Origin: Massalongia carnosa
Lineage: Eukaryota
Direction of reading: 5' to 3'
Length of the DNA stretch: 64,000 nucleotides
NCBI GenBank assembly: GCA_965645245.1
Contig: OZ287088.1
Location: 682,001 to 746,000 of the forward strand
Of this stretch, positions 21,191 through 57,923 are shown one piece after another. The first letter of the stretch is position 1. Each line of letters opens with the position of its first letter. The position numbers and the translations under genes were made by a program. A model generated the notes under the pieces. That model ran no database searches, was not told the DNA's origin, and saw nothing but the letters and a program-made list of their open reading frames with translations.

Positions 21191-21639
21191 TGTTGAAACG
21201 CGCCTGGATAATGGGAGGCAGGTTGTCTGGGACGATAAAGGTACAAGAATAAGTGCTGAATAGCTGAATATTTATTACACCGAATAGCTACCTGATAACG
21301 ACTGAATAGATAAAATACATGAGAAATCAACGCCTTATAATATCTAAAGAATATTACCCCTATTCGGCTTTGCTGACCGAACTTCGCAACTTTCGAATGT
21401 ATGAAGCCGAAAGGATTGATAATCTGATGAGGCTATTGTCGCCATGTATGTCAAAATAGCTACTATAGCTTATTCATCTTCTCGCGGTTTATCATACCGT
21501 AAAAGAGTGATTTGAAATCTCATCCCGCCACATTAGAAATCGAAACTCGTTAAATATTCTGCGATTTCCCAGTTAAGCTTAGCTAAAAATAGTTATGCGG
21601 GAACTCAAGAAAATGCGGCAACTTAGGAAATTCGCAACA
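21191..21639. mobile_element. solo LTR (449 bp) in the Copia B integrase
   Basis: TGTTG...CAACA, 5-bp TSD GATAT; removal restores HPDIQHLGVLGSTVY. Confidence 0.9.
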
Positions 21640-33668: not shown

Positions 33669-36600
33669 CTATAATTTGATTCCGTTTCTTATAATAGCTA
33701 CCTCGCCGTTCTTGGGACACAACAATGTTCCTTGAGTAGTGATTACACACAAGCTGAGGGTGTCGGCGTAGAGCCAGTCCTTGGGCAGGAACAGATGTCT
33801 TTTGTAGGATTTAACCTTTCCATCAAGCTCCCACGTACAAAGCCAATGCTGATGATCAAAAAACATTACATGATTTTGATAGCTACCGATAAGCTTGGAG
33901 ACCTCCCCCGTCAGTGTCATAATGCTCTCTTCAAGTTTGATACAGTCTTCGAATGCCTCTGGGACGAGCGCAGTTGTAGGGATGAGTTGGACCCGCCGTC
34001 CCTTGGGTTTATCAGTATTGTAGGAGCAATTAGACTGCGTTTCGAAGATCACCGACTTAGAGTCTTTTGTTGAAGCAATGCAGTCAACAGTTTCATCTAG
34101 ATCTTTATCTTCTACGAAGGCACCTTGGGTTGCAAGGTCCATTCGCTTAATTGATGTAGAATGAACGGAATAATTTTCCGTCGCTGCATCTGAAGAAAGT
34201 TCCCTAATGTTTTTCCTATCAGAATCTAAAGGCACAATGCTCAGGCCATTTTCTGGTGTCAACTCCAAAAAGCTGTTCCAGTCAAAGATACGGACCTCCT
34301 CGGCGTTGATTAAAACAAGGCGTGTAATGTTTAATGGATGCTCTATCCACTTCCCTCGTCCCTGTGAGTGATGTTTCCGCGTCTGGCTTATCTTTTTGGC
34401 TGAGACGTCCCAGATCCTGTCAGATGAGAAAGTTGAGACGAGTAAGTACTTGTCATCAGAACTGAAAAGAAGCTGAGTAATTCCGTCTTCAAGCCGAAAG
34501 TCTGAGGCTTTGTAGACGAGCATTTTAGCATATCTTGCCGAGGGGGTTTGAACTTTCCGAACCAAAACATGGCCTGATTCATCACCTGACGCAATCCACT
34601 TCCCTGAACTGGACCAAGCTAGAGCTATTATTGCTGTGTCTATAGTGTGTCCTGGAAGTGAGCGGACTAGCTTGCCGCATGTTATTTCGTGAATTGAAAG
34701 TTCGCCGTCGTCCCGGCCACAGCAGAACCCAAAATCATCTGGACTGCTAACTATGGCAGTGATCTGGCTACGGTTAATCTGATGCGCTTCATCAGGCGCT
34801 GAGCTCATAAAAATTCCAGTGGATGACATGCGATCTGCCTCGGGATCTGTCGCGTTTGAATGAACAAGCACTTCAGGTTCCCACACATTAATACCCGACT
34901 CACGAATATCATAGAACCGGCGTTCATCAGGACTAAAGGCGAGGTCTCGAACAAATTCGTTATAGTTGAGCTGATAGACGAGGCTTAGTTTTCGGTCCTT
35001 ATCAGCTTCATAGTCTGGAAGGGCAAAGATTTTGATCGTCCCGCAATGATCGCTGGTAAGTAGGTAGTTTCCTTCAGGACTACAAACCATTTCTTTTGCA
35101 CCTATTTGGTGCTCTATCTGCTCCTCAAACATTGGACACCAATCTACCAGGCGGGTATTATGATACAGTATGTAAACACGTCCCGAATTAGGATGCCACT
35201 GTATTGCCTCTGCAGGCAAACCGATATCGCCTTCTGCTTTCCCGACATCTTCTTTTATGATGCAACGATACGCTTGTGACTTATAATTTAGATCCCATAT
35301 TTCGACGGGTCGATTTCTTGACACGAAAGCAACTTGTGTGCCGTCGGGACTAAAACTCATTACTCGTAGGTCACCATAATGATGGCTTTCCGCAACCGCT
35401 CGAAAGGCAAAAACTGTCTCACATGTGCTCCACTTATGGCAAACGATAGAGTGATCCTGATGACCTACGATAATCTCTTCATCGTGGGTACCAAAGGCAA
35501 GAGCGATGACCCGGGACTCTCCAGCCTTAAGGATTGAAGCTACTCGATTTCCCGTGCCAATTTCCCAGACCTTCAACGTCCTGAGGCCCGAGGTACAGAT
35601 CAGATAGCCGTTTTTATTGATGGTCATTTCTGTGAGATATTCGCCATGCCGGATTCTGCGCAACTCTTCGCAGGTCTGAGTGTGCCATATTATTACACAA
35701 TGCGCCTGAGGGATGAGCGCTGCGATGATCTCGACAATGGCTATTAGTCTTGATGCTCTCTCATCAGGCCCGACGGAAAGCCGAGCATGGCAATCATCCC
35801 ACTCATGATTCGAGATTCCTATGACTGAGAACAAGCCATTCACTTTACCAAAGTGTTTGCGGATCATCGAGCCCTCGGGAAAAAACGGTGGTATCAGCCT
35901 ATATATCGAGGAAGGGCTTTGTATTAGATTACTTCCAAATCTACCTACTAGCTTAATTAACTCCACAGCCCACATTCTGAAAAACTCATTGTCATCGTTT
36001 GACAAGGTTCTAGACGAGGTCTTCCTGAGAAGATTTTCTCTCCTTTTGACAAAGGTTTTGAGATATTGAGCGGAATTAATCAAACTCGTAAGACTGCCGG
36101 ACAAGGCTAGAATGTAAATCCAATTGAGGGCGTCATTTTTGAAAAAGTCTAAGAGGATATCTCGAAGAGGCTCGGAATCTGGCTGAGCAAGGCTTAAGTG
36201 ATAGGCCCATGTTTCAGCTGCGTAAAAAAGAAAAGGATGGGAGTTATCAATGAGAGAACCAGCATTGCGGTCGGTGTCTCTAAACTGGGTACGAGCTTCA
36301 AGTGCACTCAAGATTTGTTTCCACTGTCTTTGCTTTGTAGAACAGAGGTATCCAAGACAGGTGGTTGCTAGATATTCGTGCCCCTCATTTGAAGTCATTT
36401 GAATCAAATTTTGTCTTGTAGTGCTCACTAAGAAAAGCCGTACCGTTTCATGAATTAAGCTCACTTTCGAGTTTTGTATCCCGACAAAATCTCCACAGAT
36501 ATGCTGCATTGTGTCTTCTAGGCTGATAAAGTCTGAGAATTCTGGATTCAAAGCAGTTTTCAATTCAACAACCGAGAGCGGCCGAAAAGAAAACGTTGCC

Positions 36601-39062
36601 CAAGTTAGTATCGTCGAGGCCAACCTCCGTGTTCGTGGCTCATGTTCATCTAACTTCTGCAGCGTACGGGCGTAAAAGGGTGTCATCTCACTAGGAAACC
36701 CATTGATAACCTGATCGATATCACTTTGTGTGTGCCAGTTTCGTTTCAAAGCTTTCATAGCCAAAGAAACCCATAGGAAATTACCAGACGCTTTAGCCAA
36801 TACGTTTTCTACAGTCAGCTGATGATGTGGCGACCCTTCTGGTATGATGCTACCAACTTCCTCTATCACAAAGGCTCGAATATCCTGTCTCGTATCTGAC
36901 GGAGAAATTGTGTACTTGGAGTACTTTGTAAGGCTTTGCTCTACACGCATCTGGATGTCTCTTGTCGGTCTACTCACTAATAAAATTTTTATGACTAGGG
37001 AATGTGTTTTAATATTGGAAAGGCACCAGAATATCGTGGAAACTGACTCTGATTCATCCAGACCATCGATGATCCACCACAACGGGCTTGCTAGGGTCAT
37101 TTTGAACACCAAACCTTGAAAGATTTTCTCCCAGATTGTGGTTGCGCTCATGTTCTCAAACGAGATTCCGAATTCTTTTTCAAGTCGTAAGAGCCTATCA
37201 CCAAACATAGGAATATCTCGCGCAATCTGATATGCAAGGGAGCGCAAAAAATAAGAAACCGATTGCTTCGCTTTATTTTCGAAGGTGAAATTGTGATACT
37301 GACAAAAGTTCTCGCCGTTCATCTTCAGAATACTGTTGGTAATGCTCGCTGCAAGAACAGATTTTCCTGCAGCAGGAGCCCCAGAGATCCAAAGAAAATG
37401 TGGACCCGTCTCGTGAATTTGCTGCCATTGCGTGAACCATTTTCGATCGTCAATCCATGTGCAAGTACCATGCCTTGCAAGATTTCGAAAACGATCCAAC
37501 TCCTCGGCTACTTCGTTCTCGGCGATCAAAAGCACATCTCCGAGTTTCTTGACCTGATTGGCAGCTTCGGTGGAGATACTTTGGGATTCTTCAAGAGGTA
37601 GAAGATCAGATATATTTTACTTTCGATTTCAGGACTGACGATAATATTGCTTACCGTGCTCGAAGAGCGAGAATATTAAGCTCTTTAATGAGTTTTTGAC
37701 ATCTTGATAGCCGGAATCTTCGACGTTCTTGAACTTACAAACAGTGTGATGGCTAGCAGCCATGGGAACACTGATTTCGTTTGGCAGATTCAATACCCCA
37801 GAATCTTTATCAACAACCTGAAACCAAGTCAACTCTTGCTCACGGTTAGTACGAAGCTTCGATTAGACATACCAAGACTTTCCGCGGTCCTATGGAGGTT
37901 TTCATCGTTTCATAAAAAGAGTAGAGTTTGAGTCCACCACACATATTGCTAAACTCGTCGTTTATACTCTGAAGAAACGTAGAGTGAGACGAGAGTTCTT
38001 TGATATAACTCTTAGACATACTAGCTATCTGTAAAATGTACACCAAAGACTTTGCAAGACTACTGCCCCGGTGAGGAGTTGACAAGAAAATGATAGCCTT
38101 AACATGAGATATCATATCCCGGTATTTAGTGTCGTTGTTTCCCATGATATAAGCCTATAGTTGTGGTAGACTGTCAGCTCAGTCTCACATCCAAGATCCA
38201 CCACCAAGGCGATCCAGACCACACGCAAAACTACAATCTGCTGGCTGCTGCCTCTTTGAAAGCCAAACAAGACACACCTTTTTCGCAATCAACCCTCCCA
38301 TTGAGTGTGAGACGAAGATAAGGGGACGCTAAGATAGTCGATACAAGGTTAGCAAGGATGGTAACTAGCCGTACCTCAGAATTGATGCTGAGAATCAGAA
38401 TCATGACTGACGCTTCCAATAGCTGACCCCTGCAAAAATGCGTGTTTCATCTTGAACAGAAAACCTTTAGCAAAGTCATGGATGTTCATCGCGCTCGAGG
38501 GTCCTGAGATGCCGGCAGCGTAGCCAAATGTGTGCACACGAGCTCTTGCGAGTTGGGGGTCGGAGCATAGCCATGACGGCCAAAAGAAGTCGGGATTGTG
38601 TTCCCACGACCATGATCTTCTTGCTGACCCCCCAAGTCCGTGAATGAAGATAATATCGACGATCGGCTCCAAGGGAATCCATACCGCCACTAGGCCTAAT
38701 GGATCGGCCGATCCTTTTCGATGGAGTTCTGTGCTTAATTCGGACGACTGAGCAGAAGAATTTGTGATCAGGATTTTGGGACTCGAGTAAATTCTGTCTT
38801 GAAGTTTCTCGTTACCAGTAACTGCCGGAACGTCAGCCTTCTCCCAGTCTGTCTGACCCGCAGTGAGAGCATCTAAATCATCCACGGTCAATGGCTTGCT
38901 GCTTGCATCGCTGAGCGCTCGGTCTTTGACTTTTGCGCGTCTAATGCTAAACTTGTCAAACTAAGACGGACAGGTGGATCAGCACTATTATCCAAAATGC
39001 CAAGGTTATACTTTAGGCAGGATCGGAGTCGAAGGGCCGCCTACAAAACCCTTTCCATCCAT
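33669..39062 (-). CDS. NLR-like protein 1: SesB-like alpha/beta hydrolase - NACHT - WD40 (multi-exon)
   Basis: IIFIHGLGG, spliced exon RPLIFVSHSMGG, FLSTPHRGS, ASHHTVCKF; Walker A GAPAAGKS, Walker B IIDGLDE; WD40 repeats; long uninterrupted last exon 37535-33669; start exon inferred. Confidence 0.88.
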
Positions 39063-39514
39063 GATCCAAACCCGCTCGGGTTGAGAATATTAGAGTAGAG
39101 ATGCACAAGATGCTAGCTTGCTGGCGCTTTGATCTAATCCATTCAAGAAAAGGAATTGGCATCTACTCTGTAGCTAAGTGACAAATGCTACAATATCATA
39201 GCATCTGGGAGCTAGCTTCTGTTGTGCCAAGCAGGCTGCGTGCAGATCTATCCCTAACTAGACGCACATGGGTCATGGACAGGCTTCAGGCATCGATTGG
39301 ATCGCTTGTCGTCCATTTCTTATCGTTTTGACTTCGTACCCCCGCCACTGAGTTTATTAATATCGACAGCTATTCAGAGCAATGCCATTCTGGATTCAGA
39401 TGAGGCTTTGAACGTGCCATGTGGTCCAATATTTCCGAATGCCTCAGGGCTACAATACAGGCAGATAAAGCCATCATCACCGATTATGTTCATCCTCATT
39501 CCCTAAACAGCGGT

Positions 39515-40550
39515 ATGCCAACTGAAGATATTTCCTCCTCCCAAAGTTGGCGGCGAACATGCTGTAGATGAAGCTGTCCTTGAAGGTTCGCAGACATGAT
39601 TCTTCTCTTTGTCTACTCGCAGAATACAGCTAACCTTCTAATATTTCAGCCCCTTAAAAGGATTCCCGATTGCCGGCACTAGGTAGAAGGCGGCATACAA
39701 TTATGGCTCATCCCTATGGAGCAAGACCGCTAAGCTTGTCGCTCAGCTGCTATGTGACACCTATGAACGTTATTTCTTAAAGGGCTGTGTTCATGGTATT
39801 TCAACATATCGAACTCTGAAAATTAGTTAGCTAATAATAACCTAATAAAGATTGTTCCTAATGATTTTCTAGGTTAGCACATATGTAAAGGAGATTTTAA
39901 ATATTTAAAGACGATACTACGTGGTTGTACCGTCCTTCATCCCAAAAGTCTACAACTAGAGGCACTTGAGGCAGAGGCCAGACTACTTCTTGCTAGCTGA
40001 GTGGTTCGAGATCGAACGGCAGCCACCTGACCCACTGAAGCTTACCTTGCCGGTCGCAGAGTTGTACCGAAAGTCCGTATCCCCAACAGGAAAATTCGGC
40101 TTCCACGTCATTACTTGTCATGGCAATCTCCCTCAATACGCTGGATGGGAAGAATCTTGGACCGTCATGTTTACAAAGATCTTGTCGAGGGCAGTGGATC
40201 TGGATCTTGAGAAGCACGACCCGTGGCCAGAGTTCACTGCACTTCGGCAACTGCTGATCGATAGGGTGATCCCACAACTATTAGATCCCTTGACGAGCGA
40301 AGGAAGGAGGATAAAACCGTGCCTAGTGCACGGAGATCTCTGAGACGAAAACTACGCGGACGACATGAATAACGGAGAGCCCTTCGCTTTTAATGCTGGC
40401 TCATTGTATGCGCACAATAAGTATGAGATTGGCTATTGGAGACCGCCAAGACATCGATTGAGCAATAAAGCCTATATACGCTCATACAAAAAAATATCCC
40501 CGTGTCGGAACTTGGCAAGTTTCGTGTGGCTGGGGCTGAGAGCATAGACT
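39515..40550 (+). pseudogene. fructosamine-3-kinase-family pseudogene
   Basis: SPTGKFGFHVITCHG, IKPCLVHGDL*DEN, AFNAGSLYAHNKYE; multiple in-frame stops. Confidence 0.85.
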
Positions 40551-41111
40551 GGTTGCGAAGTAGAGGATGAGTGAGATGCCCGGAACCTTCTCTACTCGAT
40601 GCGCTATAATATCTCCTGCGCCGTTTTGATACCCGCCAGTGGACAGCGCCAAGTGTAGGAAACGTTGATCTCCTTGCCCGTAGTCTCATTTGCTGAATGT
40701 CACGGCTAGTGTTTTTGAGGACATGAAAATCCTCTGTCATAAGTTCTTCCCAGAATAACTAAAGGAGATTGAAAGACTCTATAGCAGTCACGTTGAAGCA
40801 GATGACAAAGACATGGAAGATGAGGAGACATTGGAGCTTGAGGATGACGAGTTGGAGAGCGAGGGATAACAACGTAGGAGTGAGAATAGTGAACAAACAC
40901 CAGTGATTAAATCAATAACATCTAAGCACTTTTTAAAATATAGATAAATCGTACATAGGCTGCGAATACTTATAAATTCCAAGTCTGGAGTGTCGAATGA
41001 TGGTCAATCATGAGAAACGAACGGGTTGACACCGCGAGTAGAGTCGAATACTATCAAAAACGGAGGAGTTTATCCGGAACTATCGCAAACCATTCAAATC
41101 ACCTCCATCAA

Positions 41112-42255
41112 ATGTCTAAGCAAACCGTCCATCCCCGCCATCCTCCATTCTCATCACTTCCGCTGGATCCAAACGGGCCAAACAGCAATGCGTGGGGCAT
41201 GTTCGGTCTTACGGACGAGCTCGGGATGCTCAACCTCCTTACTCCCGCTGTGGTAGCCTCTGCGGCAACGGAAATTGTGTCTGGCATTCGCATATCGTTG
41301 GATTGGCCACTCGATAAGCCTACGCATCCCTTATACAAGCGGAAGCCATTTGAGCAGCAATTTCTCAATCGAGGAGGAGGACGGGTGGTCAACGACGACA
41401 TATTGTGCTTCAACACGCAGGGCAGCAGCCAATGGGATGGCTTTCGTCATTATGGTCGATGCGCCTAGAACAGGAACATCCTTCGCTTGATAGCTGACAC
41501 GTCAAAAGGTTATTTGAAAGAGAGACGATACTTCAACGGCCACACCCAGGAAGAGTTGGAAACTTCGTCTGTTCTTGGCACTCAGAGTAAGCAACGCCAT
41601 CCCTTTTTAATTTGCAGCGAACCAAATTTCAATAGTATGGGCCAACAGCGGCGGGATCGTTGGTCGTGGGATCTTGGTAGATTATGCCGATTGGGCTTTG
41701 CGAAATTCCATCCAGCTCGAGCCCCTGACCTCGGTCGGTATCCCGTTTGAACACCTCCAGCGCGTAATCAGTGACCAGAGCATTACGTTCCGCTCTGGAT
41801 CCTGTTCATTCGCAGCGGGTTCGGCGCTGCTTACGACGCTCTCTCCGACGCGGACAGGAGATCTCTTTCGGCGCGTTTGTCGCCCGATTTCATCGGAGTG
41901 GAGGCATCCGAGGAAATCCTTCGATGGCTATGGGACAACCAGTTCGCCGCGGTGGCGGGAGATGCCCCCTCCTTTGAAAGATCGCCTCCGGCCGGGCCGC
42001 ATGCAAACATGGACGTCATGCTCCATCAGTGGCTCCTAGCCGGGTGGGGAATGCCGATTGGGGAGTTGTTTGATCTGGAAGTACTTTCCAAGCACTGCAA
42101 AGAAACACAGCGGAGAAGTTTTTTTCTAAGCAGTGTCCCGTTGAAGGTAAGGCTCACGTCTGGGGTTATGAAATAAAAGAAATCGTTGTCGTTCTCACAC
42201 AAACCAGGTCACCGGCGGCGTGGCTAGCCCACCCAACGCCATCGCTATCTTCTAG
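41112..42255 (+). CDS. putative cyclase / kynurenine-formamidase-like protein; apparent frameshift near 41797 (possibly a pseudogene)
   Basis: AWGMFG..DELG.LNLLTP, NTQGSSQWDGFRHY, GGIVGRG.L.DY, AAVAGD, LHQWLLAGWGMPIGELFDLE, VPGGVASPPNAIA-like end. Confidence 0.8.
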
Positions 42256-42659
42256 TTCAGCTTCCAATGTACTTGACAAAAAACAGATCATTTGAAAGTT
42301 GATTCTATCTAGAAAAACATTTGTGAAATCACAAAATAAAACTTCACGAGTCAAATTACTCATGTTGAAAATAAATCCTTCTTATCAAATCGCAGTAAAT
42401 TGAATCAGATAACGATAGTTTTGCACAAGATTTATCTTTTTCCTAATAACTTTTTTTGGGGGGTTTTTTGGTTTTTTTGATTTTATTTTCTTAACACACT
42501 AAGTTATACCTTGACCAAGTAACAAGATGTCGAATTTTGAAACCCCGAAACTGCGTTCCTCGCGTGCGACATGTCAGTCAACAAATTCATAACAAAACAT
42601 ACGCCGCGCAACGGGTCAGGTTTCTCTACTCAAAACTCAACCCGTTTGTGGCGGACCCT

Positions 42660-42731
42660 GGCCTGCTGGGTCAGAAACCTCTACGTGGTGCAGGCTATCA
42701 ACACCTCCTCGGAGGTGGCCAATATCTGATC
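42660..42731 (+). ncRNA. HDV/CPEB3-like self-cleaving ribozyme (predicted)
   Basis: P1 GGCCTGC/GCAGGCT with G1-U wobble; P2 GGTCAGA/TCTGATC; P3 ACC/GGT; L3 TCTACGT; P4 CACCTC/GAGGTG; J4/2 GCCAA. Confidence 0.8.
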
Positions 42732-43240
42732 ATCGCCAACGCGGAAGTCCACCTCGGTGGCCATTTGAACGATCAACGTCTCTACTGATCATTCGTCACC
42801 TCGGAGGCACACATACAAAGCCCATTCATTCGGAATGGCCACACCCCTCAGGCGGAAGCCTTTCACCACATCGAAAAAGCCCATTCATTTAGAATGGCCA
42901 CACTTACACACCTTCATTTATACGACACCACGATCTGCCCTCGATCACGGCCAGTCTTTCCTCCATTGAATCAAAACGTTTAAAGAGAGAGAACGTTCGT
43001 CGAACGTGTGGAAATACACTGTCTAGTTCATCGAGTCTATAGGATTCCTAGCGCTTGAAGATCTGGGTGTATGCACCGCGTGGTAGAACGGTCTCGTTGC
43101 GTTCAACATGGAACAAGGGAGTGGTTTTACCCTGGGGGCCAGGTTTCCACTTCCTGACTATTGTTTATGTACATAAATAGCAGTCACAGCGTCATATCCT
43201 TAGGATGCATACGCTTAATGAATTAATAAATAATAAATAA
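42660..43240 (+). mobile_element. SINE-like non-autonomous retroposon, copy 1
   Basis: Near-identical to 62410-62990 (about seven differences seen); same 5' start GGCCTGC; A/AAT-rich tail; no long ORF. Confidence 0.88.
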
Positions 43241-45055
43241 TGCTTTTTGATGTGCGGGTAGAGTTTTGAGAGAAAACCCCGGTGGCAAAAAAGCAATTTT
43301 CGGTCGAAAACCTAACCCGTTGCGCGGCGTAACAAAACATCGTGTCTCATGATTATCGCACATCACTTTGCGTGACTCGATCGAAAATGAAGTTATTGTT
43401 TGTGTTGAGGATAGCCGAGATGTCTGCTTATAGAAAATGGCACTAACCCCAATGCGCACTAGCTATTGGAAGTATTTGGATTGGCCACCTTGGGATTTAT
43501 CATCAACATCCCGCGTCTGATATTCTAGGAGACATTCGAACATTCTACAGTGGATTGATAATGAGGCAAATATGTCAGCTTTGGAACTCCGACAAAGACG
43601 AGCTTACATATCAGCATTTGACTGACCGATCACATAGAAAGTGGGGGAATCGTGCTCAAGGCAGGCAGCGGTATATAATGGGCTATATGCCCCCATAGAT
43701 AGCCTCAGTCATTTTCAATCAATCATTAGTAGCCTGCCATTGGATCAGCTTGATCATCGCACGTACTTTTTGCTGTTGTTTCCTACTTCCACCCCTATAA
43801 TCCGTAGCCTCCGCAACAGTTTGAACAATGATAATGTTTCTTGAACGAAACACGGTTCGATGAAGTGTACGAACATCCAAATTCTCATTGCTCAAACAAT
43901 CCAAACTGCTCAGCGAGCTCCGAGCTAGTTATGTACGAGCGCCATGGTACTTGCCTCAAGCTGACTCCGTGCTAAGCTACGAGCGTGCTGTACCTACTTG
44001 CTTCGAGCGCAATTTTGAGCCCCGAGCTAGCCCCCAGCTCGACCTGGGAGCTATGTACAGTACTTGCAATGGCTCACCTACAGGGCCGGTTCCCGATTTA
44101 CCGATGTCAAGTTCGCTTTATGTACAAAGCTTGTCTAATCTGGCTGGTTGTCTCAGTTGTTCGATGTTAATATTCTGCTTGATGTATACTCTCTCTATTT
44201 CAGAACAAGTCTTCTCGTCTTCTCGTCATTGACAACTTCTCTAAATCTCACAAGTAGTTCTTCTAACCCCTAAACGGGGTTTCGACTCCCCGATACCAAA
44301 TCGCGACGTCTTTCCCAATCATCCACACTTGATCCGGCCGATAAGCATCTGCTCTGTAACGCGTCTGCCTCTAGATACATCACTCTTCTAGCAGTGAACG
44401 TTGTATAACTAACTTGTATTCAGATCTTGCTATATACAATGCTTGCCTTCTCCAAGGCGAATATGCCCCGGAAATGAAACCATAGAAGCCGCAGCCTGTG
44501 CGGCACCGTTGAACGCCGCTCCTGGGGTAGCCTCGGAGCCATTGTTGATATCTGCCCTAATGGAGGAGTCGGCTGCAGCGAGCGCTATCTTGACAGCCGC
44601 GAAAGCGTTATACATGGGATCGATTTTGCAGTACTAGACATCTCTAGTATTGTTGAAGAATGCGATAGCGCCGGGTATACCTGACAGAATAATTCGTCAA
44701 CAGTTGAAATCTAGAAAACGAGGACATTAGTTATTGCGTGAGCGCCTCTATTGAGGTTGTTCACAACATTCAGGAAAGGCTGCATGTTTGGGATTGCGTA
44801 TCGATCAAGATGATGACAACGGGAAAGAGAGAAAGCGAGCGAAGATTGGGTGGAAATGATTGAGGGATAGAGATCAACTCGGAGCGTTTCTTGAGAGAGG
44901 GGTGTAAACGCATAGGTTGAAGAGGATAATATACGAGAAATATTGATGCGGGAGTTGATTGCAGCCTTGTCGAGATTCAATATTGTTCAACCGAATCTCA
45001 TCTTATTACCTAACTCACGTGCAAGGTAGTACAAACCCTCATAATTCTCGTGTTA

Positions 45056-46078: not shown

Positions 46079-46642
46079 CTTGACGCCCTGTGCGAACGAA
46101 GGAGAGATGAATTGTGCGAAGTTTCAAGTTATGTAACCTCAATTGTGGCGGAGCTTCGCATTGTGGGGGCAAAGACTTGCGAAGATGGGTTTAGACTACC
46201 TTTGCAAAATCGTATTTGCTAAAGTGGCAGCGATGAAACAGTGATTGTCAAAGTCGAGGAAACAACATAACTAGTAGGTGGATGTTTAGGATCAGATTTC
46301 CTTCTGACGGATTTCCTTCTCAATGAGTTAGCGGAGGTAGACAAGTCCATCATTCGCTGATGCGTCGATGATCTTGCAGACATGCTTTTAGGAACTTTCC
46401 AATGGATTGGCTTTTGAACGGATTAGTGACTGCTTGGCCAGAATGGGCCTAGTTAATGTAGTCTCAATCACTGAATGTCACAATGTTTACTTCAAGGTTT
46501 CTCACAGAAATACTCTGTACTCTGTAGAGTACTTTGTACTTTGTACTTTGTACTCTGTATCTGCATACACAAAAGCCGCGTGAATCTTCCGTTTTCGCAA
46601 AGTGCATTCGTGTGTGTTCGATTGACTCGAGAACCATAATGC

Positions 46643-48311
46643 GTGGACGCTTACCTACACATTAATCGTCGTAAGAACAAGCTCGCGACTTTTCTGCGCG
46701 CAAATGCGATCCAGATGCCTCATAGCCCTCGTCCTTTCTTTGAGAGTCAGGACCATGTCTTGACCTGGATGGAGAACATTCGCGAAGCAAGCGGCAGGGC
46801 TAATCTCAAGCGCAAGTACAATCATACACCTCAATTCAAGAGTACACCAAGCACCACGCCTCGGAAGAAGCTTGCCTTGACTCCTGCGAGCGGTAACATA
46901 ATGGCCCCACGGGACACAGAGCGGGCTCCGAACAAGAGGCAACGGGTGTCTGACCCAAAAACACCATCGAGGGATTTCTGCATCCTTCCGGGACAGGGTT
47001 CGGGCGAGCAGGATCAAGATGGAGAAACCCCAAGACCTAACGCAGGACCTACGTACCCAGATACACTCATACCATCAGGCTTTGTCGCCACGATTCTCAA
47101 TCGTCCCATAGCTGAAAGCGAGTCTTCACCTTCCCGGAGCTCAGTCTCCAACGCGTCTGGGACGCGCTCCGTCAGTCCTATCAAAAGAACTGCTGATCTG
47201 CGCATGGCCTTGAGGCCGACTTCCAGGGAGGCATTAAAAGGCAAAACGGCAAGAGACGCTGGGGGGGTTTTATGCGAATATCCCCGGCTCTACCGGGTAA
47301 GTCAAGGCATAGAAGTGATATCAAAATCGCTACAGGTACTTCAGAATTGGATTGCAATCATCGCTTGCTCGAAGCTAAATCAAATCTCAGGAGCTCATTG
47401 AAGCACATCTTGATCGAGACGACTGGCCTCCGCCATCTGCATATGAGCAACACCCGTCAAGTGCTTCCGCCGAAGAAGCAGAGTATGAGCAAGTGATTGG
47501 TAAAGCGGCCCTTAAAATACACAACAAGGCTGAGGAATGTGAGAAGGAAAGCTTCTCCGAGGCCGAATGGAACAGTCGTGTTCATGCCCCGCTATTGGAG
47601 CTCATCGAACAACATCCCAAGTACAAAGGCGCAATAAAGTATTTTAACATGTAAGTTGCAGCGGTCAGTATCATCAGAATTCTTTTCTAACTCGTTCCTA
47701 GCACGACAGCCCGTATCAAGCCAAAGCGATTGTTATCGATGATGCATGCGGGAGGCTTGAAAATGGAGGACAAGATGGTTGATTATGCGGTTTGCCTCCA
47801 GCCGGATGTCTCAATGAAGAAGTGTGTCCACGATATTTTGCTGGTGCAGGACAAGGACCTGCAGTCAATCAACCAAACAGCCTATCCGCCGCTATGTCTT
47901 CGTCCCATTGTACTCAGCGTCGAGACCAAACCACCTTTTACCGGAGGCGAAGACTCTGATGTCCAGCTTGCTGTTTGGGTCGCGGCAGGACTCAGACGTA
48001 CGCGGTTGCTTTTGCACGAGTCTGGGAATGGTACGGAGCCAATACCGACAATGCCAATTTTATCAATACATGGCCACGATATGCATCTTTCGGCGTTCAG
48101 AGAACAGGAGGCAAATAACGTAAGTATCGATTCCCACCGATGATCCCTAAGCTGATCCAGAGTATAGGTTGTGTATGGCAAACTCCGAATCGGTAGCACC
48201 GATTCCGTACTCGGCACTTTTCAACTGATCAAGGCGATGGATATTCTGATAGAATGGGCAATCACAAAGTATCGATCTTGGTACAACGAGAAGGTGTTAG
48301 GTAGTATATAG
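46643..48311 (+). CDS. fungal PD-(D/E)XK nuclease-like protein (multi-exon; start uncertain)
   Basis: Disordered N-terminus with SPIK; SEAEWNSRVHAPLL, KMVDYA, SINQT.Y.PL..RPI..SVETK, QLAVW motifs. Confidence 0.75.
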
Positions 48312-50053
48312 GGCCCAATCGTTTCGGAATAGAGAGGCAAATCTTTATCATCGAACTTCTTCGCCTTCCCTTCCAAGAATGGCCACGGTTGTAGACATAA
48401 GCCTAGATGCCACGGAAGACCTTAACTTACTGAATCAAACGACCCGGTATGTCCGCTCCTTATCAATACTAAATACAACCACTAAGATTACTTGTCGACC
48501 CAGAATTCATTCCGCCATCTGATGGTTCTTCTCAGCCGTTGCTCTTGTCCACTTCTTGCGTCCGCTCGCTCACTCACTCTCGAGCATCCATTTCCTATTA
48601 TCTAACTTCCATGTCGATCCTCAGCCGTTGCGTGCTCAACAACAGCTGCAGATAAAATGTCAAAGGAAAAGTTGTGCTCTCCTCGGGATTTACAACAAGG
48701 ATTGCGTGGTCTGACTAGAAGACAAATAGATAGATACTTATGCTCTTCTTCAATTCGCAACTCGTTTACGCTGTAAAAAAACACCAATAATATCATCTTG
48801 TGGTTAGATATGCATCTATTCCTTTTTGCATACTCCGTCCTCGATACACTAGCAATTAATTAGCGAACTGCTTTCTTCGGCTCCGAAGGATTGATTAACG
48901 TCTATTTTCATCGAATCTATGAAGTAACCTAATCTAACCATCACTCTAACTGCATTTTGGCTCAACACTTTAAATGACTAACCGCGTTCAGAGCTGTCAA
49001 AATACAGAGTTACCCTACGGAGTCTATAGTCTGTTACAGAATAACTTAGGACAAAGTTTATTTTCCAATATGCCATTCTCTCTCTTTACAGAGAGTAGTA
49101 GGTGATTCGTCGCTTCTTTTCGTTTCCGCTTGCCCTAAACTAGCCCGTTCAACGGGAGCTGGTGAAAACCCCGATCTGGACTAGTTTGCTTAGCTCGTCC
49201 ATTCATACGTCATCACGTGTGTTTCCGTAAGGAGTTTCAAGATCGATATCGAGATCTTCTGTTGGAAGCAGTAAGGATTTGTGTTCCTAGTTCGTCTACG
49301 CGCTACTTTGTTTTTGTTTTTTACGTTTATCTTTGTAGTGCAAGTTAGGGTTTTAAGTGATTTCAATTAGAGATAGGGATTTGGGTTTCTGGATAAGTGA
49401 TGATGAGGTTCGGAGCAATTAACCAAGTACGGAGTAGGTATTGTGGGAATGTGGGGGAATGTGTTGGAGACACGGACGGTTAATACCCAATGACGGATAT
49501 TTTATTTTACTTGGATTAGATTAGATTAGATTAGATATCTTCGTCGAGTTGTTTGTTGTGTTGTCGGGAGATACACAGCAAGTGTCCAAAACGGTTGGAG
49601 TAAAGTATAAAGTATCTAAAGTAGTCCGATCTCAAGTCTAACTATGTCCGACACACATCAACCCGAAATCAAAAGTGTAAAGTAACTGACTGACTACCTG
49701 TGATGGTCATAAGTTTCCGAAAATTGTGCGATAATCACGATACTCCTTATCAAGGTTCCTTTCCAATTTCTTTCAATCCAATTCAGTTCATATCCAATCA
49801 TCAAAGAGAGTCATCGTCAAGATCGCGGGTTTACATACCATCCGCCTTTGTCGATATTCTCATGACACAGCGAGTATTTGAGTCGAATCATTTGATACTT
49901 CTCGAGTAAGGTTCGTATGATTATCAACCCATACGTATTTACTATGGCTGTTAGCAGGCCGAGCTCAATCGGGCTGATGACGGAAGTGGCAAGAGAAAGC
50001 GACCTGATAAGTTCTTGAAGCTTAGATATAATAGAAACAAATTGGAAATCAAC

Positions 50054-51284
50054 TTACTTTGTCAGTTGACCGTATCTCTGAGCTAAGTCTCTCAAATCAT
50101 TAAGCATTCTATGGAATTTCATTAGCGACGGCCCTGATGACAAGACTGCGAAAGAAATCTATACTGCTCTCTAAGCGAGTGATTTTCTGTGAAGAGAGCC
50201 GATACGTGCGTATTGAATCTCCTATTCCAACGTTAACTTTTCATCAGCATCTGCGGTAATCTTGGAATCGCATTCTCACAGTTTGTAAAGGTCTAGGCGG
50301 CCGTCGTAATCCTCTTCAGGAGGGGATATCTGAACATAAGAGCGGTACGCTTCCAGGTATTCGTCCCCAAATTTATTGCAAATTGGCCGCCATTGTCCAA
50401 ACTCATCTTCATTGCGCGTACATGTAAGCCTCATCAAATCTGTCGCCCCTGGATCATCAGTCAACTTACATTCGTTGTGAGCGTAGAAACAGCACGCATC
50501 GAAGATAAGAGAGTCGCCATTATCCACATCAACCCCAGAGTTTGCGTACCAAAGATCTCCGTGCACAAGCGAGGGCTTCACGAATCGACCCTCGCTCTCG
50601 AGTGGGCGAAGCAGACGAGGTATAACCTTATCAAAAAGGGCTGGAACTAGCACATCAAACTCGGGATCCGGCCCCTTGGCTTCGAGTTCAAGTTTGAGGG
50701 CCAGCCTCATGCTATTTGTAAAGTAAGTCTCCCAGCTTCCTTCCCATTCGTTCATCTGGGGCAAATTGCCGCTGTAAGTGGTTATGTGGAAGCCGAATTT
50801 GCCGTTCGGAGACTTGCTATTTTGATGGAGCGCTGCTAAACTGGAGGTAAACTTTTGTGGGTCAGGCATTTCGTCTACCATGTCTCGATATTGGCATAAG
50901 AGAAAGTGCGTGTCCGGTATGGTCTCGTATGTTCCCCAGGCAATTGGCTTTGGTGCGAAGTCGGGCATGAGAGCATATATAGCCTTCATGGACTCGAACT
51001 CCCCGTGCACCATATTCTTCCCTATCTCTTTTGATAAAACTTTTATAAAAAATGACTGTGGTGTCCCATCGGCTAGCTCGACGTCGATTCGGCCGGTATT
51101 AGCCCAGAAACTGACGCCATGACCTTGAGTGGATACCACTCGGCAGCCTTCCGGTAGCTCTTGATGTTGATTAGCTGTGGACTTATATATTTGACGAACA
51201 TCATGACTTACGTGCGGCGACCTTTGCGTCAACCTTGGTGTTTGTTGCATCGAATTCGAGACCTTCAGCGCCGTCGTAATTCAT
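50054..51284 (-). CDS. fructosamine-3-kinase / ketosamine kinase family protein (multi-exon)
   Basis: FFIKV, GEFESM, SPNGKFGFHITTYSG, KPSLVHGDLWYAN, FDACCFYAHNE; introns with GT-AG; appears intact. Confidence 0.88.
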
Positions 51285-51994
51285 GAATGATAGGTGTCGT
51301 GCGTTTGTAATAGAAACCTTATGTTTGCTCCTGTCACTTTTGAGACTTAGTGAGCGGAAATTATACCCCTATGTCTTGCCTGCAGTCCCTACATACCAGG
51401 ACAAAGGTTTCGGCGATTAAGAGATTTCACAGCAAAATTCTCACACTTCATGTATCTCACAAACATGTACTCAGTACACAATAAATCAAAGTTCCAACCC
51501 TCACGATTTTAAATTTATATCAAAAGTCCAACGATGATGAGAATTTATAAAGGAGTTCAGTACATGCATCCGATGAAATGAATTAAGATCCAAGCTGAGA
51601 AAAGATCGTAGGAGATATGTATACATTATAGGGCTCGGGTCCTGTGGTGTGAAATGGGCGTCAACGTGCAGACTGGCTACATCGAAGGATTGCGGCACAG
51701 CATGTACAGCGCGAAGCAGCCACGCAGCCCTGTTGCTGTTGACAAGGCATCTGGAGTAGAACGAATCAATGATCAACCCGTAGCGCCGCTTGGGAAACGA
51801 GGGACCAATTGCTTGGATAAGTGACTCGAACCGACCAAAATTGTCCGGAAAGTTCCATAAGAACAAGAAGCCCCCCTCGTATATGGCCTCTGATCTTCTG
51901 GTCCAAAGACGTCATCCAGACATTCCGCAAAAATACCTAACCCCTCCGAGCCGTTTCGCGAACAAATCTTTCTTGACCTGCCTTTGTGTCTGTG

Positions 51995-52534
51995 ATGACA
52001 TCCGAACCCTCTCACCCAACCATCGCAGCGGGCGATCATAATGGATACATGGAATATGCCATTGAACAGGCTCGTCTGTCGCCTCCAGCACCCACGAAAT
52101 TTTGCGTGGGAGCAGTCCTCGTCGATGCAGATAAAAACGAAATCTTATCGACTGGATATTCCATGGAATTGCCCGGGAATATACCTGGAGACCCTGGGAA
52201 AACACATGCAGAGCAGTGCTGCTTCATCAAAGTGGCTCAAAGGCACAATCTTCCAGAGGAGCGATTAGGCGAAGTGTTACCGAAAAACACAGTCCTGTAT
52301 ACGACCATGGAGCCGTGCAACAAGAGACTGAGTGGGCATAGGACCTGCGTTGAGAGGATCTTAAGACTCAACGGTGCTATTAAAGCTGTCTATGTGGGGA
52401 TCAAAGAGCCGGAGATATTCATTGGTAAGAATGTGGGTATGATGAGACTAGAGGATGCAGGCGTCGTGGTTGAGTTTGTGGATGGAATGAAGGATCGCAT
52501 TTTGGAAGTCTCTACCGCAGGGCATGAAAAGTGA
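51995..52534 (+). CDS. Zn-dependent cytidine-deaminase-fold protein (similar to the Rib2/DRAP deaminase domain)
   Basis: FCVGAVLV, HAEQCC, YTTMEPCNKRLSGHRTC (HxE...PCxxxxxxxxC). Confidence 0.85.
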   Translation: MTSEPSHPTIAAGDHNGYMEYAIEQARLSPPAPTKFCVGAVLVDADKNEILSTGYSMELPGNIPGDPGKTHAEQCCFIKVAQRHNLPEERLGEVLPKNTVLYTTMEPCNKRLSGHRTCVERILRLNGAIKAVYVGIKEPEIFIGKNVGMMRLEDAGVVVEFVDGMKDRILEVSTAGHEK

Positions 52535-53059
52535 AGTAAATGTGAACCAGTGTCGCAACGAGCACCAGCTAGCAAGACACATTTGATAGTCTGACGAGGC
52601 CGTGGTTAATGTCTCTCTCGCAGTTCGTTTGGTAAATGTGTATTATCCTCAAAGTTGTTACGAGAGGTACTTGATAACACGAATAGATGATAGACGATTG
52701 ATTTATTATTGTAGGAAAGAAACTAAATAATGTGTAAATGACTATAATGATGAGAAATCCGTGTAGATAAATCCTGTGTTGATAGAGTTATATTCACGTT
52801 CATTCGGAATTGTTTTTCAATCATCTTCGTTTGTATCTTGCCTTGGCTACGTACTACATTTACCTCATCACCTCGAACTATCCAACACTTAAAAGATCCA
52901 CTACATCGCGGCAATGATGCCACGCCGTCGATGATGCTATCAGCAATGGCTCATCTGGGCTGAAACTATTGCTCTTATGTACTTCATTATATTCAACAGA
53001 ATCAGGTTCAAGCAAGCTCTTCCTGGGCCGATCGGAGAGAAAATGTTCTATTAGTACCT

Positions 53060-56000
53060 ATGGTAAGTTCAGAAGGCAAACCCGCTGTGAAAAGCTGGGC
53101 TCAATGAAGGATGATCATGGTGCTCGACCTTCCTGCACTTTCCTGACCTTGACCGAATCATGCATAGTCGATTAGAAGTTTTCGGCGCAAGGACACTGAC
53201 TGGTCTTCCACCACCATCAACGTGACCACCACCTTCACCGACGATGGCGTGGATGATTCGAAAGGTCCCCTCGGATTGAACCTCCTCCACTCCCCCTCGG
53301 AGCCTCTCGTTGACTTGATTTTCGTGCACGGCCTTGGCGGCGGTTCCCGAAAGACATGGAGCAAGACGAGCTCGGTCACACTCTTTTGGCCGCAGGAATG
53401 GCTTCCTAAAGATCCTGCGTTCAAGAACGTGCGAGTGCACAGTTTCGGGTACAATTCAGACTGGATCAAGGGTAGAGAAAACTGCCTGAATATCCATCAC
53501 TTCGGCAAGTCATTGCTGGGCGAAATGAACACATCGCCTTATCTGGGGGGTACAAACACGCCCATAGTGCTCATAGGACATAGCATGGGAGGCTTGGTTA
53601 TCAAGAAGGCCTACATGTTAGCCAGGCAAGATGCAGCTTATGAGGCTCTGTCAAAACGGTTTCATACAATCTACTTTCTTGCGACGCCCCATAGAGGTTC
53701 TGGCTTGGCCAAGCTCTTGAACAACATCCTTCAGATTGCCTACTCGTCTCGGGCTTACGTCGCAGACCTTGAACAAGGCTCCGGAGCTATTCAATCTATT
53801 AACGATGAGTTTCGCCAATATTCCGCCGACATAGATCTCTGGTCATTTTACGAAACTCAGAAACTCAGTAGAGGAGTCTTCAGTACACTCATTGTTGATC
53901 CTGATTCGGCTACGCTAGGGTATCGCGAAGAGAAACAGATGCCAATGAACGCTGATCACCGTTCAATCTGCAAATTCGAGACACCAACAGACCCAAACTA
54001 CGTAATCCTTCGCAATGCACTAATGTCGACCGTTAATAGTATCTCCAAGCTAGGTATAACACACTCATTAATCTATGATAGACCTCGCTAAGAATTTTAT
54101 AGAGCTAAAATCAAAAGAGAAACTACGGCACAACCAGGTTAAGGACCTGGAAAAGTATTTGGGTTGGTCTGATAAGCTAGAAGATGACCTCATAACGGTT
54201 GAAGATGCCCGTATGTCCGGAACCTGCGAATGGTTCTCGGCGAAAAAGAGCTACCTGAAGTGGATGGACTTTGCCCGAGATGGACCAAATGTACTCTGGG
54301 TTAATGGAAAGCCAGCAGCTGGCAAGTCTGTTCTTGCAGGCTATGCCATCGATCAGCTACAAAAAACGAATGCAGACTGCAGCTATTTCTTCTTCAAGCA
54401 CGGGGACAAGTCCAAGTCACGGCTTAGTGCCTGTCTCCGGTCACTGGCTTTTCAGATGGCTTGTACGAATGCTCAAGTTCGGGAAACGCTATTGGAGATG
54501 CAAATGGATGATATTCAGTTCGATAGTGATAATGAACGCAGCATATGGCGGAAACTATTTTTATCTGGCATCTTTCAGACCGAGTTTCCCAGGCATTACT
54601 GGGTTATTGATGCTTTAGATGAATGTGTGAATTTTTCTTCCCTTTTTGATCCGATGCTGGCTAAGCTTGATGAATCGATACCGTTACGAATCTTAATCAC
54701 AAGCCGAGAAACTTCTGAGTTGGAGAGGCATTTTTTCAGTCTCGGCACTCCCCGATGTCAATCTGAAAGTATATCAACGGCGGATACTCTTCCTGACATC
54801 AAGCTCCTGGTTGAGGCGAAGACAAGGTCTCTCATTGTGAAGGACGACGAGGACCGTGCTGCCCTAGTTTCAAAGATTCTGGGAAAATCCGAAGGATCTT
54901 TCCTGTGGACGGTCTTGGTCCTCAATGAGTTGTCAAAGTCCTATGGTGAGGAAGATATCATCCAGGTTCTCGACGACGTTCCTCAGGATATGGAACCTTT
55001 ATACCAGAGGACGCTAGAATTAATGTCACAAGCCAAACGCGGGAAGAAGCTTGCTAAAGCTATACTCACTTGGGCAACATGTGCAACAAGGCCGCTGACA
55101 ACGAAGGAGCTCGACCGAGCTCTGAAATTAGAGGTCAAAGACAACTTCCCAAGATTGGAGGATAGTATTGTGGCACTATGTGGACAGCTGGTAACTATTG
55201 ACAAGTTTGGCAAGGTGCAAATGGTGCATGAGACGGCCAGAGAATTCCTCCTCAACAACGACTTGGAATCCGAATTTGCCATTAACAAGACAGAGGCGCA
55301 CACGGGGATCGCTAGAGCATGTCTCACATACCTCACCGGCGAGGAGATGAAGCCCCCTCGAACCAGCAGGCGTAGTTCTGCTATGATTATCCCAGGCAAA
55401 AGGGCCGAGTTTTCACTTTATGCCTGTGCAGCATTCTCATACCATCTAGCCAAGGCTGATCCCCTTGCTCACGATATATTGGTTCTTGTCAATAAGTTCC
55501 TGAAGTCCAATGTCCTGTCGTGGATAGAAGTCATTGCCCAAACACAAAATCTCATCCCTTTGATCCGCACAGCAAAGAATCTTAGGACATATCTCAACTC
55601 ATGCACCGTGGAACGGTCGCCGCTTGGCAGGGATATGCAAACAATAAGAGGCTGGACGACGGATCTCGTCCGTATTGCGGCGAAGTTTGCTGACGCGCTC
55701 ATAATGTCACCATCGGCAATCTACTCGCTTATCCTACCATTCTGTCCTACGAAGTCTACGGTGTACAAAACTGTATACCCTGGCCGGAAGCTCTCGGTAG
55801 TGGGACTTTCAAACGCTCAATGGGACGACCGGCTGGCTTGTATCGACTTCCATCAGAGCCAGACGAGCGCCGTTTCCCATGGTGATGATTTCTTTGCAGT
55901 GGGCTTAACTTCCGGAACAGTTGCACTGTATCACATGGCATCCTGTCAGGAATTCAAAGTTCTTAATCACGGCGAGGCCGTAAAGTTTCTGCAATTCAAG

Positions 56001-57923
56001 AGCAAGACTGATTTGATGGCATCCTGCGGAATGAAGACAATCCGGATCTGGAACATTCACAGCGGCGAAATAATCCACAGTTTCCAATCCACACAACGGT
56101 CTATCGGGTTGGCATTTGACAAGAACCTGCTAATAGCCGCATCTTACAAAAACTACCTGGAATCGTGGGATCTGGACAATGGCGGGGCCAAGCGACCTAA
56201 CAGGCCATGGAATCAATCGGGCGAACTCATGAACACACGACCTCCGTGTGCCATATCGATTTCCGTGAGCCACAAAATGCTGGCTGTCGCTTACAGTGGA
56301 CGACCGATAACACTTTGGGACCTCGAGGAAGATACGTATTACGGCAGCTGCGGGAAGAAACTACCTAATGGCAGAACTAGTACACATCTAGTTACCGCCC
56401 TCGTTTTCAATCCCAACCCAAGTATTGGCCTCCTCGCTGTGTCCTACCTCGATGGTGAACTCGTACTCCTTGATCCGTTTGATGATCAGGATTTGGAGAG
56501 CTTCCGCGCAGATTGCCATACTCTCACGGCTAGTCCAGACGGACGTCTGCTTGCAGGCGGCGCTGGATTTGGAACAATTCAGATCTACGAGTTTGACACC
56601 CTGAGGTTGCTCTACCGGGTCAAATCCTCCAACTTCTACATCAAGCAACTGTCCTTCAGCAGAGACAGCATCCACATTTCCGATATTAGAGGGTCGCAAT
56701 GCAACGTCTGGGAGCCTGCAGTCCTGCTTCGGGACTCTGTGGGTGATGACAGCAGCGAAGGCACATCAACGTCCTTCGTCGAGGTAGTCGCGTCGGACGC
56801 TAGAGTCAAGGTTAGCGCCATGGTCTTGCATCCTAGGGGAGAGGTTGCATTCTGCGGTAAGGATGATGGGTCTGTTTCCCTATATGAGTTGAAGACCGGA
56901 GCCCAGGTGCGGACGCTTTACCGCCACAAGACAATGGTTCGTATCCTTACTTGGTGGCCTCAAAGCGATCTTATCATGAGCATTGATGTATCAAACGGGA
57001 TCTTCATATGGAATCTAACTAATACACAGGATGGATGGGTGGCTGACAAAATACTATTTCAGTCTCGACTGGACTGCGGAAAGTCTATCACTCAAGTCTT
57101 ACTGGGTGAGGCAGCTGGTAAATTCGTCCTGTCAACCCGGGAGTCCGACTACCTTTGGAGCATTAACGGCCAGCAGGAGGACGCACGGGCATACTCGAAT
57201 AGACCAGGGATCCGAAAGTGGATCCAGCACCAACAGTCATCGCTCCACATGATCTGTATCGAAGGCGCAGCCGCTCGCATCTATGCCTGGAGTGACTGGT
57301 CGGAAGTCGCAACCGTGCCCCTCACCGTTGACATGACGGGACTCCAGTTAAAAAGCGTCTACCCCTACATATCGGTCCACAGAGGATGGTTACTCCTCGA
57401 GCTGTCCGAGCTGGATGGCTCGACGATTACGCGTGCCCTGCACCTCCTCGATGCTGCGTCTTTCTGCATCGAGGAAACCCCAGTAAAGGAAACCGTTCCC
57501 GAAGTAGCCAAAGTCATGAAGGATACCGACACGATCTCAATCAGGGGGGAGACTGTAGCAGCATCGGTCTCGATCCCGCTTCTCGGTCCCCAGCTCGCCG
57601 CCCTTGCCCACCGTGTCGCTCACATCGTCGGCCTTAGCGACGCTGGTAAGCTCGTCTTCCTCGACATCCAATCATGGGTCTGCTCCGCAGATCTCGATGG
57701 GCTAGGCGACAACCCAGTTTCATACTCAAGGCATTTCTTCGTGCCATACGACTGGTTCTCCGGGACAAGGGACGTGATCTGCGCTGTCGAACAGCGAGAC
57801 ATCCTCTTTGCGCGGAATGACGACGTTGCAATTGTCAAAGGCGGGCTGGAGTATGCGGAGAAAGTCACTTTGGAGACGAAGGGGACTAAAGAGTTGCTTG
57901 CTGTCCCGCCGGTGGATAGATAG
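53060..57923 (+). CDS. NLR-like protein 2: SesB-like alpha/beta hydrolase - NACHT - WD40
   Basis: ATG|GTAAGT micro-exon with intron 53063-53167; FVHGLGG, GHSMGG, ATPHRGS, ADHRSICKF; GKPAAGKS, VIDALDE; WD40 repeats; intron ~54054-54102. Confidence 0.9.

Follow-up and report, generated by a model that had tools for sequence, protein, structure and literature searches.

The 64,000-nucleotide stretch of the Massalongia carnosa genome analysed here (GenBank assembly GCA_965645245.1, contig OZ287088.1, positions 682,001 to 746,000 of the forward strand; hereafter the window, with positions counted from its first letter) carries two gene pairs in mirror orientation, each consisting of a fructosamine kinase gene of family PF03881 and a gene for a NOD-like receptor (NLR). 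The constant core of these pairs, in the window and elsewhere, would be a PF03881 gene adjoining, usually head-to-head, a gene of the STAND (signal transduction ATPases with numerous domains) class that encodes a sesB/PGAP1-like serine hydrolase, a NACHT domain and WD40 repeats. Kinase and NLR are linked at most loci with sufficient flanking sequence, they have diversified together, the partner kinases retain their catalytic motifs with few exceptions, and in two of three deep clades a third gene has joined them. With high probability the kinase-NLR pair is a functional unit, and we consider it on balance probable that the two genes form a co-duplicating module, an old Pezizomycotina family, centred on a small molecule.

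Two kinase-NLR pairs in the window

The features of the two pairs are as follows.

33669-37616, minus strand: NLR1 main exon (clade A), with NACHT (GAPAAGKSVLA), winged helix, WD40 propellers and C-terminal RHLFLPKDW
37629-38960, minus strand: N-terminal sesB/PGAP1-like serine hydrolase of NLR1, in four exon blocks (SHSMGG, TPHRG, HH..CKF)
38961-39674, no strand: head-to-head spacer between NLR1 and FN3K1
about 39675-40631, plus strand: FN3K1 pseudogene, a clade A kinase (PF03881 fragment with disrupted frame)
41001-42176, plus strand: cyclase-like fragments, with a frame switch near 41797-41800
about 50069-51284, minus strand: FN3K2, an intact fructosamine/ribulosamine-3-kinase orthologue with introns (clade B)
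51995-52534, plus strand: Rib2 (DARIPP) deaminase of riboflavin synthesis, a single exon with HAE and PCx9C zinc motifs
53060-57923, plus strand: NLR2 (clade B), with hydrolase, NACHT, winged-helix domain, WD40 and C-terminal region

NLR2 begins with an ATG at 53060, followed by a 105-nt intron (53063-53167), a single hydrolase exon, a second short intron near 54050-54110 (borders approximate) and an open reading frame (ORF) at 54072-57923. Its hydrolase carries GHSMGG and matches PGAP1 with 27.7 bits (cut-off 24.3), its NACHT region matches NPHP3_N (E 1e-45), and WD40 and beta-propeller families are matched as well; in a PDB sequence search the hydrolase gave no match and NLR2 found generic WD40 chains only. 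The main frame of NLR1 is a single uninterrupted ORF of 1315 aa that matches NPHP3_N/NACHT (E 1.8e-37), GPIID_WHD, and WD40 and beta-propeller families. Upstream of it, four blocks (37641-38711) encode a hydrolase that can be aligned with the N-terminal part of a Xanthoria orthologue; they contain no in-exon stops and are separated by plausible GT..AG introns. The region also aligns to the NLR2 hydrolase domain, and GxSxG is present as SHSMGG; the separate exon fragments gave no Pfam match, and no start codon was located in the upstream hydrolase region (37629-38960). Both proteins therefore have the N-terminal GxSxG hydrolase, NACHT domain and C-terminal WD40 repeats of the sesB-like/NACHT/WD40 architecture. 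Aligned end to end, they are identical at 366 of 1328 positions (28%, E 4e-143), and they share Walker A AAGKS and Walker B W[VI]ID[GA]LDE.

The two kinases are likewise highly diverged, at 34% identity. FN3K2 matches PF03881 with 125.1 bits (E 4e-36, cut-off 22.4), retains the catalytic Asp (HGD), the Mg-binding Asp (FD) and the ATP Lys, and has relatives in PDB (6OID, E 1.6e-19; 9CX8, E 9e-17). FN3K1 reaches 39 bits against the same cut-off: two conserved Trp codons now read TAG (within 39957-39959) and TGA (40341-40343), additional stops lie toward the 5' end in the N-terminal part, and FD has become FN. Its read-through translation matches its own kinase clade (66%, 55% and 55%). Thus the first-pass annotation of this DNA, which had described two mirrored pairs, a kinase pseudogene, highly diverged kinases, and NLRs alike in architecture yet far apart in sequence, is borne out on these points, and all four motifs that it had named occur in both NLRs.

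Two small enzymes had also been assigned to the module. The deaminase between FN3K2 and NLR2 is a genuine gene (Inv-AAD, E 7e-61; PDB 7DRZ, E 5e-37). Aligned to Aspergillus oryzae Rib2, its zinc motifs are THAE and EPCNKRLSGHRTC, with HxE, PCx8-9C and the Arg after PCxK all in place, and the PDB codes that it matches are those of AoRib2 (PMC8256712). An AID/APOBEC-like immune enzyme was considered for this gene and rejected, given the match to A. oryzae Rib2 and the zinc motifs; the gene is a housekeeping Rib2 and belongs to clade B only. The cyclase did not survive as a module enzyme: one of three fragments matches PF04199, below threshold (13.3 bits against a cut-off of 23.1, E 0.097), the reading frame is shifted, and no counterpart was found by tblastn in any of 80 surveyed loci.

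Linkage, co-diversification and third genes

The neighbourhood of related NLRs was surveyed on metagenome contigs, using as sole pattern a Walker B motif taken from an alignment of 38 NLRs of the family. This yielded 366 matching stretches, 332 of which encode relatives, and the best 80 loci were retained. Dereplication at 90% NLR identity gave 54 clusters, of which 36 are informative. By tblastn, 55 of the 80 loci contain a PF03881 gene or Rib2. In 56 loci the sequence extends 3 kb or more upstream from the start of the hydrolase, and 48 of these have the kinase there; it is also present in 3 of the 24 with shorter flanks. Counted by cluster, it lies upstream in 30 of 36, head-to-head in 28 and in tandem in 2, with 718-4618 bp (median 1380 bp) between the matched parts of kinase and NLR. 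The downstream side of the NLR provides an internal control: a kinase occurs there within 5 kb in 0 of 30 clusters, and within 10 kb in three clusters, at least two of which have it near a second NLR-like gene. All eight partner kinases taken from clades A, outer B and C match PF03881 (E 6e-29 to 3e-35). The pairing is thus far beyond chance expectation.

The same linkage is seen in named genomes. Orthologues of FN3K2 and NLR2 lie two locus tags apart in four of them, from two classes:

Icmadophila ericetorum: kinase/NLR orthologue pair, locus tags 006767/006769
Xylographa trunciseda: kinase/NLR orthologue pair, locus tags 008975/008977
Aspergillus parasiticus: kinase/NLR orthologue pair, locus tags 010810/010812
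Polytolypa hystricis: kinase/NLR orthologue pair, locus tags 07264/07266

Both orthologues also have an equal-sized longest contig in Lachnellula suecica (12.3 kb), Aspergillus sp. HF37 (155 kb), three Mb-scale named cases and five more (10-74 kb). The relatives listed include, in the four lineages checked, Lecanoromycetes, Eurotiomycetes, Leotiomycetes and Sordariomycetes, and the best named relatives of the window genes come from lichen-forming Lecanoromycetes. The NLR1 group is patchier than that of NLR2, with one relative at 95% identity followed by others at 46-55% (Xanthoria, Seirophora, Glarea, Pyrenochaeta) and, among the matches listed, further clades at 24-40%. No fusion of NLR and kinase was seen among the matches listed, since PF03881 is absent from 120 plus 120 NLR relatives; the only extra domain in the kinases listed is PF00383, and two database proteins, one of them from Achaetomium macrosporum, are merged models of Rib2 and FN3K.

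A block of conserved gene order could by itself keep two genes together. None of the 21 window flank ORFs outside the modules has a match in the 80 loci, and the seven clade B core loci have no outer-flank ORF in common; because the surroundings differ in this way, the module is not merely a syntenic block.

Congruence of the NLR and FN3K trees had been set in advance as a test. Trees were built from 30 representative loci and the two window pairs, with one locus per cluster that has a long NLR frame and a kinase; kinase-less loci, redundant cluster members and the kinase-bearing clusters L014/L015 and L016 were left out. Both trees resolve into three deep clades, which agree between NLR and kinase:

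Clade A: window pair 1, L003 and L006
Clade B: window pair 2, seven orthologues, L063, L076 and L078
Clade C: 18 rows, whose subclades likewise agree between the two trees

The trees have 15 of 29 splits in common; when the labels were shuffled 10000 times, 0.23 splits were shared on average and never more than 4. In approximately unbiased (AU) tests, the kinase data do not reject two NLR clades that have strong support but are absent from the kinase tree (p-AU 0.56 and 0.23). The deep clades are paralogues, because the window contains members of both A and B, and Xylographa trunciseda, Polytolypa hystricis and Gallowayella weberi contain two members of the family each. With congruent trees and the two window pairs in separate deep clades, the earlier proposal that the kinase-NLR linkage predates the duplication is upheld. 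Kinase identity is about 40% between clades, and the NLR-linked paralogues are 34-45% identical to the conserved FN3K orthologue.

The third gene depends on the clade: Rib2 in clade B, a major facilitator superfamily (MFS) transporter in clade C, and none in clade A. Every one of the 10 clade B core loci with sufficient flank has Rib2, as does L068; it was found in no other locus. An enrichment of FN3K or deaminase neighbours had been anticipated, and it is found for the kinase, with the deaminase restricted to the NLR2 clade. Within clade B the gene order kinase-Rib2-NLR is constant, and the strands of Rib2 and the kinase vary between loci. Rib2 and the NLR are on opposite strands in L038, L048, L051, L054, L055, L057, L068, L074 and L080, whereas they share a strand in the window, L046 and L050. 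These strand switches are local inversions within a retained trio. L068 itself (8357-10498) encodes an NLR2 relative (49%) in which a second P-loop/NACHT-like region replaces the hydrolase; Rib2 lies upstream and the kinase is absent.

The clade C gene emerged from a comparison of outer ORFs, which are shared by 93 of 435 locus pairs; 91 of these are clade C pairs, and the gene is the same in the rows inspected. It encodes an MFS_1 transporter (E 1e-39 to 2e-48 in five full-length ORFs tested), and its automatic atlas name, 'MFS multidrug transporter', is to be taken as a lead only. The gene occurs in 29 loci, equal to 15 clusters, of which 14 are clade C tree rows and one is unplaced; it is absent from the clade A and B rows and from the window. 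Thus 14 of 18 clade C rows have it, two are true negatives and two have insufficient flank. It is found on either side of the pair, 243-1542 bp past the kinase in some loci and 208-1350 bp past the NLR in others. Four subclades of the NLR and kinase trees recur in its own tree, and a 2035-residue model of Apiospora arundinis merges hydrolase-NACHT-WD40 with the MFS protein.

Most partner kinases appear competent for catalysis as judged by their motifs. With the exception of FN3K1 of the window, every partner kinase examined retains the ATP Lys and the FD Asp. The same holds for the H[GA]D Asp, except that L061 reads HGV. Genuine in-frame stops at conserved columns occur in FN3K1 and L017.

A related arrangement was noted in L023, where a NACHT-winged helix-ankyrin NLR (20292-22787, plus strand) is directly followed by a second PF03881 kinase (22989-23609, E 2e-39). 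A fragment of a DAO-family FAD oxidoreductase lies near the kinases (18262-18918); the DAO family includes fructosyl-amine oxidases. The ankyrin NLR of L023, together with a neighbour annotated as 'nacht and ankyrin' in Cladonia grayi, suggests from gene content that FN3K-type kinases adjoin more than one NLR architecture.

Outside the modules, the left half of the window is dominated by mobile-element remains (3965-32435). These include the following.

Within 3965-32435: copia-type elements (gag, integrase, RVT_2)
22461-26338: DIRS-like element with tyrosine recombinase, RVT_1 and RNase H
9201-10049 and 10372-11148: Harbinger pair, DDE_Tnp_4 and Myb respectively
Within 3965-32435: piggyBac-like and DDE_1 fragments

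The module flanks contain a PD-(D/E)XK (PDDEXK_12) ORF at 47691-48143, a dynamin-like gene at 58972-60697 and a MORN-repeat ORF at 61670-62230, none of which recurs in the 80 loci. Sequencing reads compared with the window gave identical contigs in run X3, small identical pieces in X5 and only a repeat in X4. A repeat at 42600-43330 of the window is short and of very high copy number, with a contig depth hundreds of times that of its flanks in all three runs and many internal joints.

Explanations for the pairing

A small-molecule module is favoured because the kinase is intact and belongs to a small-molecule family, because clade C carries a transporter and because clade B carries Rib2. In such a module the kinase would phosphorylate a small molecule, which could be a xenobiotic or else a metabolite of ketosamine-like or ribitylamine-like type, and the MFS protein, where present, would move the same compound. 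The WD40 sensor of the NLR may then detect this compound, the product of its phosphorylation or the loaded kinase, upon which NACHT oligomerisation would activate the N-terminal hydrolase as output. The module would duplicate and diverge as a whole, giving three or more deep clades, with the clade A kinase decayed in the window genome.

Several observations weigh against this explanation. Six of 36 informative clusters lack a kinase though the NLR ORF persists; upstream of the NLR some of them have unrelated housekeeping genes (SAP18/PRP4, P450, Nnf1), and others have a helicase-type element with another NLR, ORF-free AT-rich DNA, or a replaced N-terminus. A kinase is broken or lost beside long NLR ORFs in the window, in L017/L018 and in some haplotypes of the L023 cluster. 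Among the near-identical haplotypes of that cluster the kinase is mostly intact, with one mutated, one internally deleted and one replaced by AT-rich DNA, and the NLR frame is open in all of them. Since NLR ORFs remain where the kinase is broken or lost, the NLR frame can stay open without a kinase, at least temporarily. The survey was seeded from the NLR side, so unpaired FN3K genes may be common; the metagenome loci are partly redundant, and the agreement of the trees is due in part to shared species history. The clade B NLR, at 56-85% identity to its listed relatives across several classes, looks housekeeping rather than immune, and is conserved enough for a housekeeping role. Finally, that kinase and NLR are coupled biochemically, and which ligand and which output (cell death or another) they would have, is what we infer from these data.

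A guard/guardee pair, in which the NLR physically watches the kinase protein and attack or allelic mismatch triggers the hydrolase, is a possible, rather unlikely explanation. It would fit a linkage that is tight, ancient and pair-specific, with kinase and NLR co-diverging, and a kinase whose presence or absence differs among near-identical haplotypes. The clade B partner is a conserved housekeeping enzyme, as is SEC-9, and the available text on PLP-1/SEC-9 provides a precedent (PMC12881547, PMC10197012). However, the partners keep their catalytic residues (except FN3K1, and L061 with HGV), which argues that they are not decoys, and the co-diverging MFS transporter and Rib2 indicate a small molecule. 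NLR ORFs also remain beside a dead or absent kinase, contrary to a sensor triggered by loss of its guardee, and kinase and NLR have no motif in common (blastp E >=0.95). A metabolite is therefore preferred over a decoy, because the partner kinases keep their catalytic motifs and clade C has a co-diverging MFS gene.

Linkage could also be maintained without biochemical coupling, through a bidirectional promoter, a chromatin domain, or carriage of the kinase as a passenger of segmental NLR duplication. Such an origin would agree with the head-to-head arrangement of 28 of 30 pairs, with about 1-2 kb between matched parts, and with the position of the modules in repeat-rich, rearranging regions. 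Passengers should decay, yet Lys and FD are kept in all but FN3K1 (and the H[GA]D Asp is lost additionally in L061) at about 40% inter-clade identity. Moreover, clade B adjacency holds despite the intervening Rib2, strand changes and differing flanks, and the MFS gene switches side yet stays clustered. We therefore regard uncoupled linkage as improbable.

Housekeeping damage control is a similarly doubtful account. Here the clade B trio would handle glycation products or reactive riboflavin intermediates, and clades A and C would be metabolic offshoots. NLR2 and FN3K2 are 56-85% and 62-85% identical, respectively, to their listed relatives across several classes, Rib2 is a core biosynthetic enzyme, and FN3K enzymes are deglycation kinases according to PDB names and the available text of PMC6652019. 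Nevertheless, sesB-like/NACHT/WD40 is among the NLR architectures listed for fungi (PMC4986451, PMC12258605), and clades A and C are patchy, with the pseudogenes and presence/absence variation typical of NLRs. A chemical link between Rib2 and FN3K is itself hypothetical.

Chance adjacency of two families that both have several copies per genome (for the kinase, see the available text of PMC6652019) is refuted by the presence of the kinase upstream in 30 of 36 clusters against 0 of 30 within 5 kb downstream, by the congruent trees and by locus tags two apart in four genomes, and its probability is negligible.

Relation to known systems and significance

The two window proteins share the three-part architecture of the sesB-like/NACHT/WD40 NLRs listed by Dyrka et al. 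(2014) and in a 2025 survey of Sordariales, although the clade B member is unusually conserved for this group. The closest parallel to the pairing is PLP-1/SEC-9 (het-Z, vic, Bcvic1/2), which, in the available text, is an NLR with a lipase-type effector beside a conserved housekeeping gene, recurrent in distant fungi, and for which a guard model with SEC-9 as guardee has been proposed (PMC12881547, PMC10197012). Tight linkage to a partner across taxa is common to both systems. However, PLP-1 is a patatin/NB-ARC/TPR protein with a SNARE as partner, whereas the window family combines sesB-like, NACHT and WD40 domains and is paired with a small-molecule-type kinase. Unlike PLP-1/SEC-9, the kinase-NLR pair has given rise to numerous paralogous modules that co-diverge and have acquired third genes, and it is known here from sequence alone. 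NWD2/HET-S and the PP, sigma and HRAM motif pairs are likewise adjacent, co-inherited NLR-partner genes; in those, as the available text of PMC9815663 describes, the partner acts downstream and has a short amyloid motif in common with the N-terminal end of the NLR. In contrast, the NLR of the window family has its own effector domain, and no motif common to it and the kinase was found.

The kinases themselves resemble FN3K and FN3K-RP (protein-ribulosamine 3-kinase) in PF03881 and in the conserved Lys, HGD and FD motifs, and differ in having expanded into NLR-linked paralogue clades. Among plants, NLRs act through a kinase-fold partner in Prf/Pto, ZAR1/RKS1 and RPS5/PBS1, and Pto and Prf are genomically clustered. 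The plant partners are protein Ser/Thr kinases or pseudokinases, whereas those described here come from a small-molecule/ketosamine kinase family and have retained their catalytic residues. No report of the kinase-NLR pairing was found in the literature searched, which excluded subscription journals and bioRxiv supplements, and the word 'fructosamine' has 0 occurrences in PMC4986451, PMC12258605, PMC12881547, PMC10197012 and PMC9815663.

Fructosamine kinases have been recorded in a lichen. The available text of PMC6652019 describes a seven-member family in Cladonia grayi, three members of which are induced in coculture with the alga; its main text, in the portion available, makes no mention of NLRs. 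The corresponding part of the supplement places a 'nacht and ankyrin domain protein' two gene numbers from the most induced kinase and leaves most kinase neighbours unannotated (PMC6652019).

Few partner proteins of fungal NLRs have been identified, and a linked, co-diverging partner across several classes offers a concrete, testable handle. The partner is an enzyme of assayable activity, with orthologues in tractable Aspergillus species. Such a partner would also account for the expansion of fructosamine kinases in a lichen fungus, in which three members are induced in coculture (PMC6652019), and it hints at a link of some NLR-like proteins with the chemistry of small molecules instead of with proteins. 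Tentatively, the NLRs of this family could be small-molecule-gated switches, each matched to what its own co-inherited kinase uses as substrate or makes as phospho-product, and in one clade served by a dedicated MFS transporter. Together these would make up a diversifying kinase-transporter-NLR surveillance system for sugar-amine compounds or xenobiotics, maybe including photobiont compounds in lichens.

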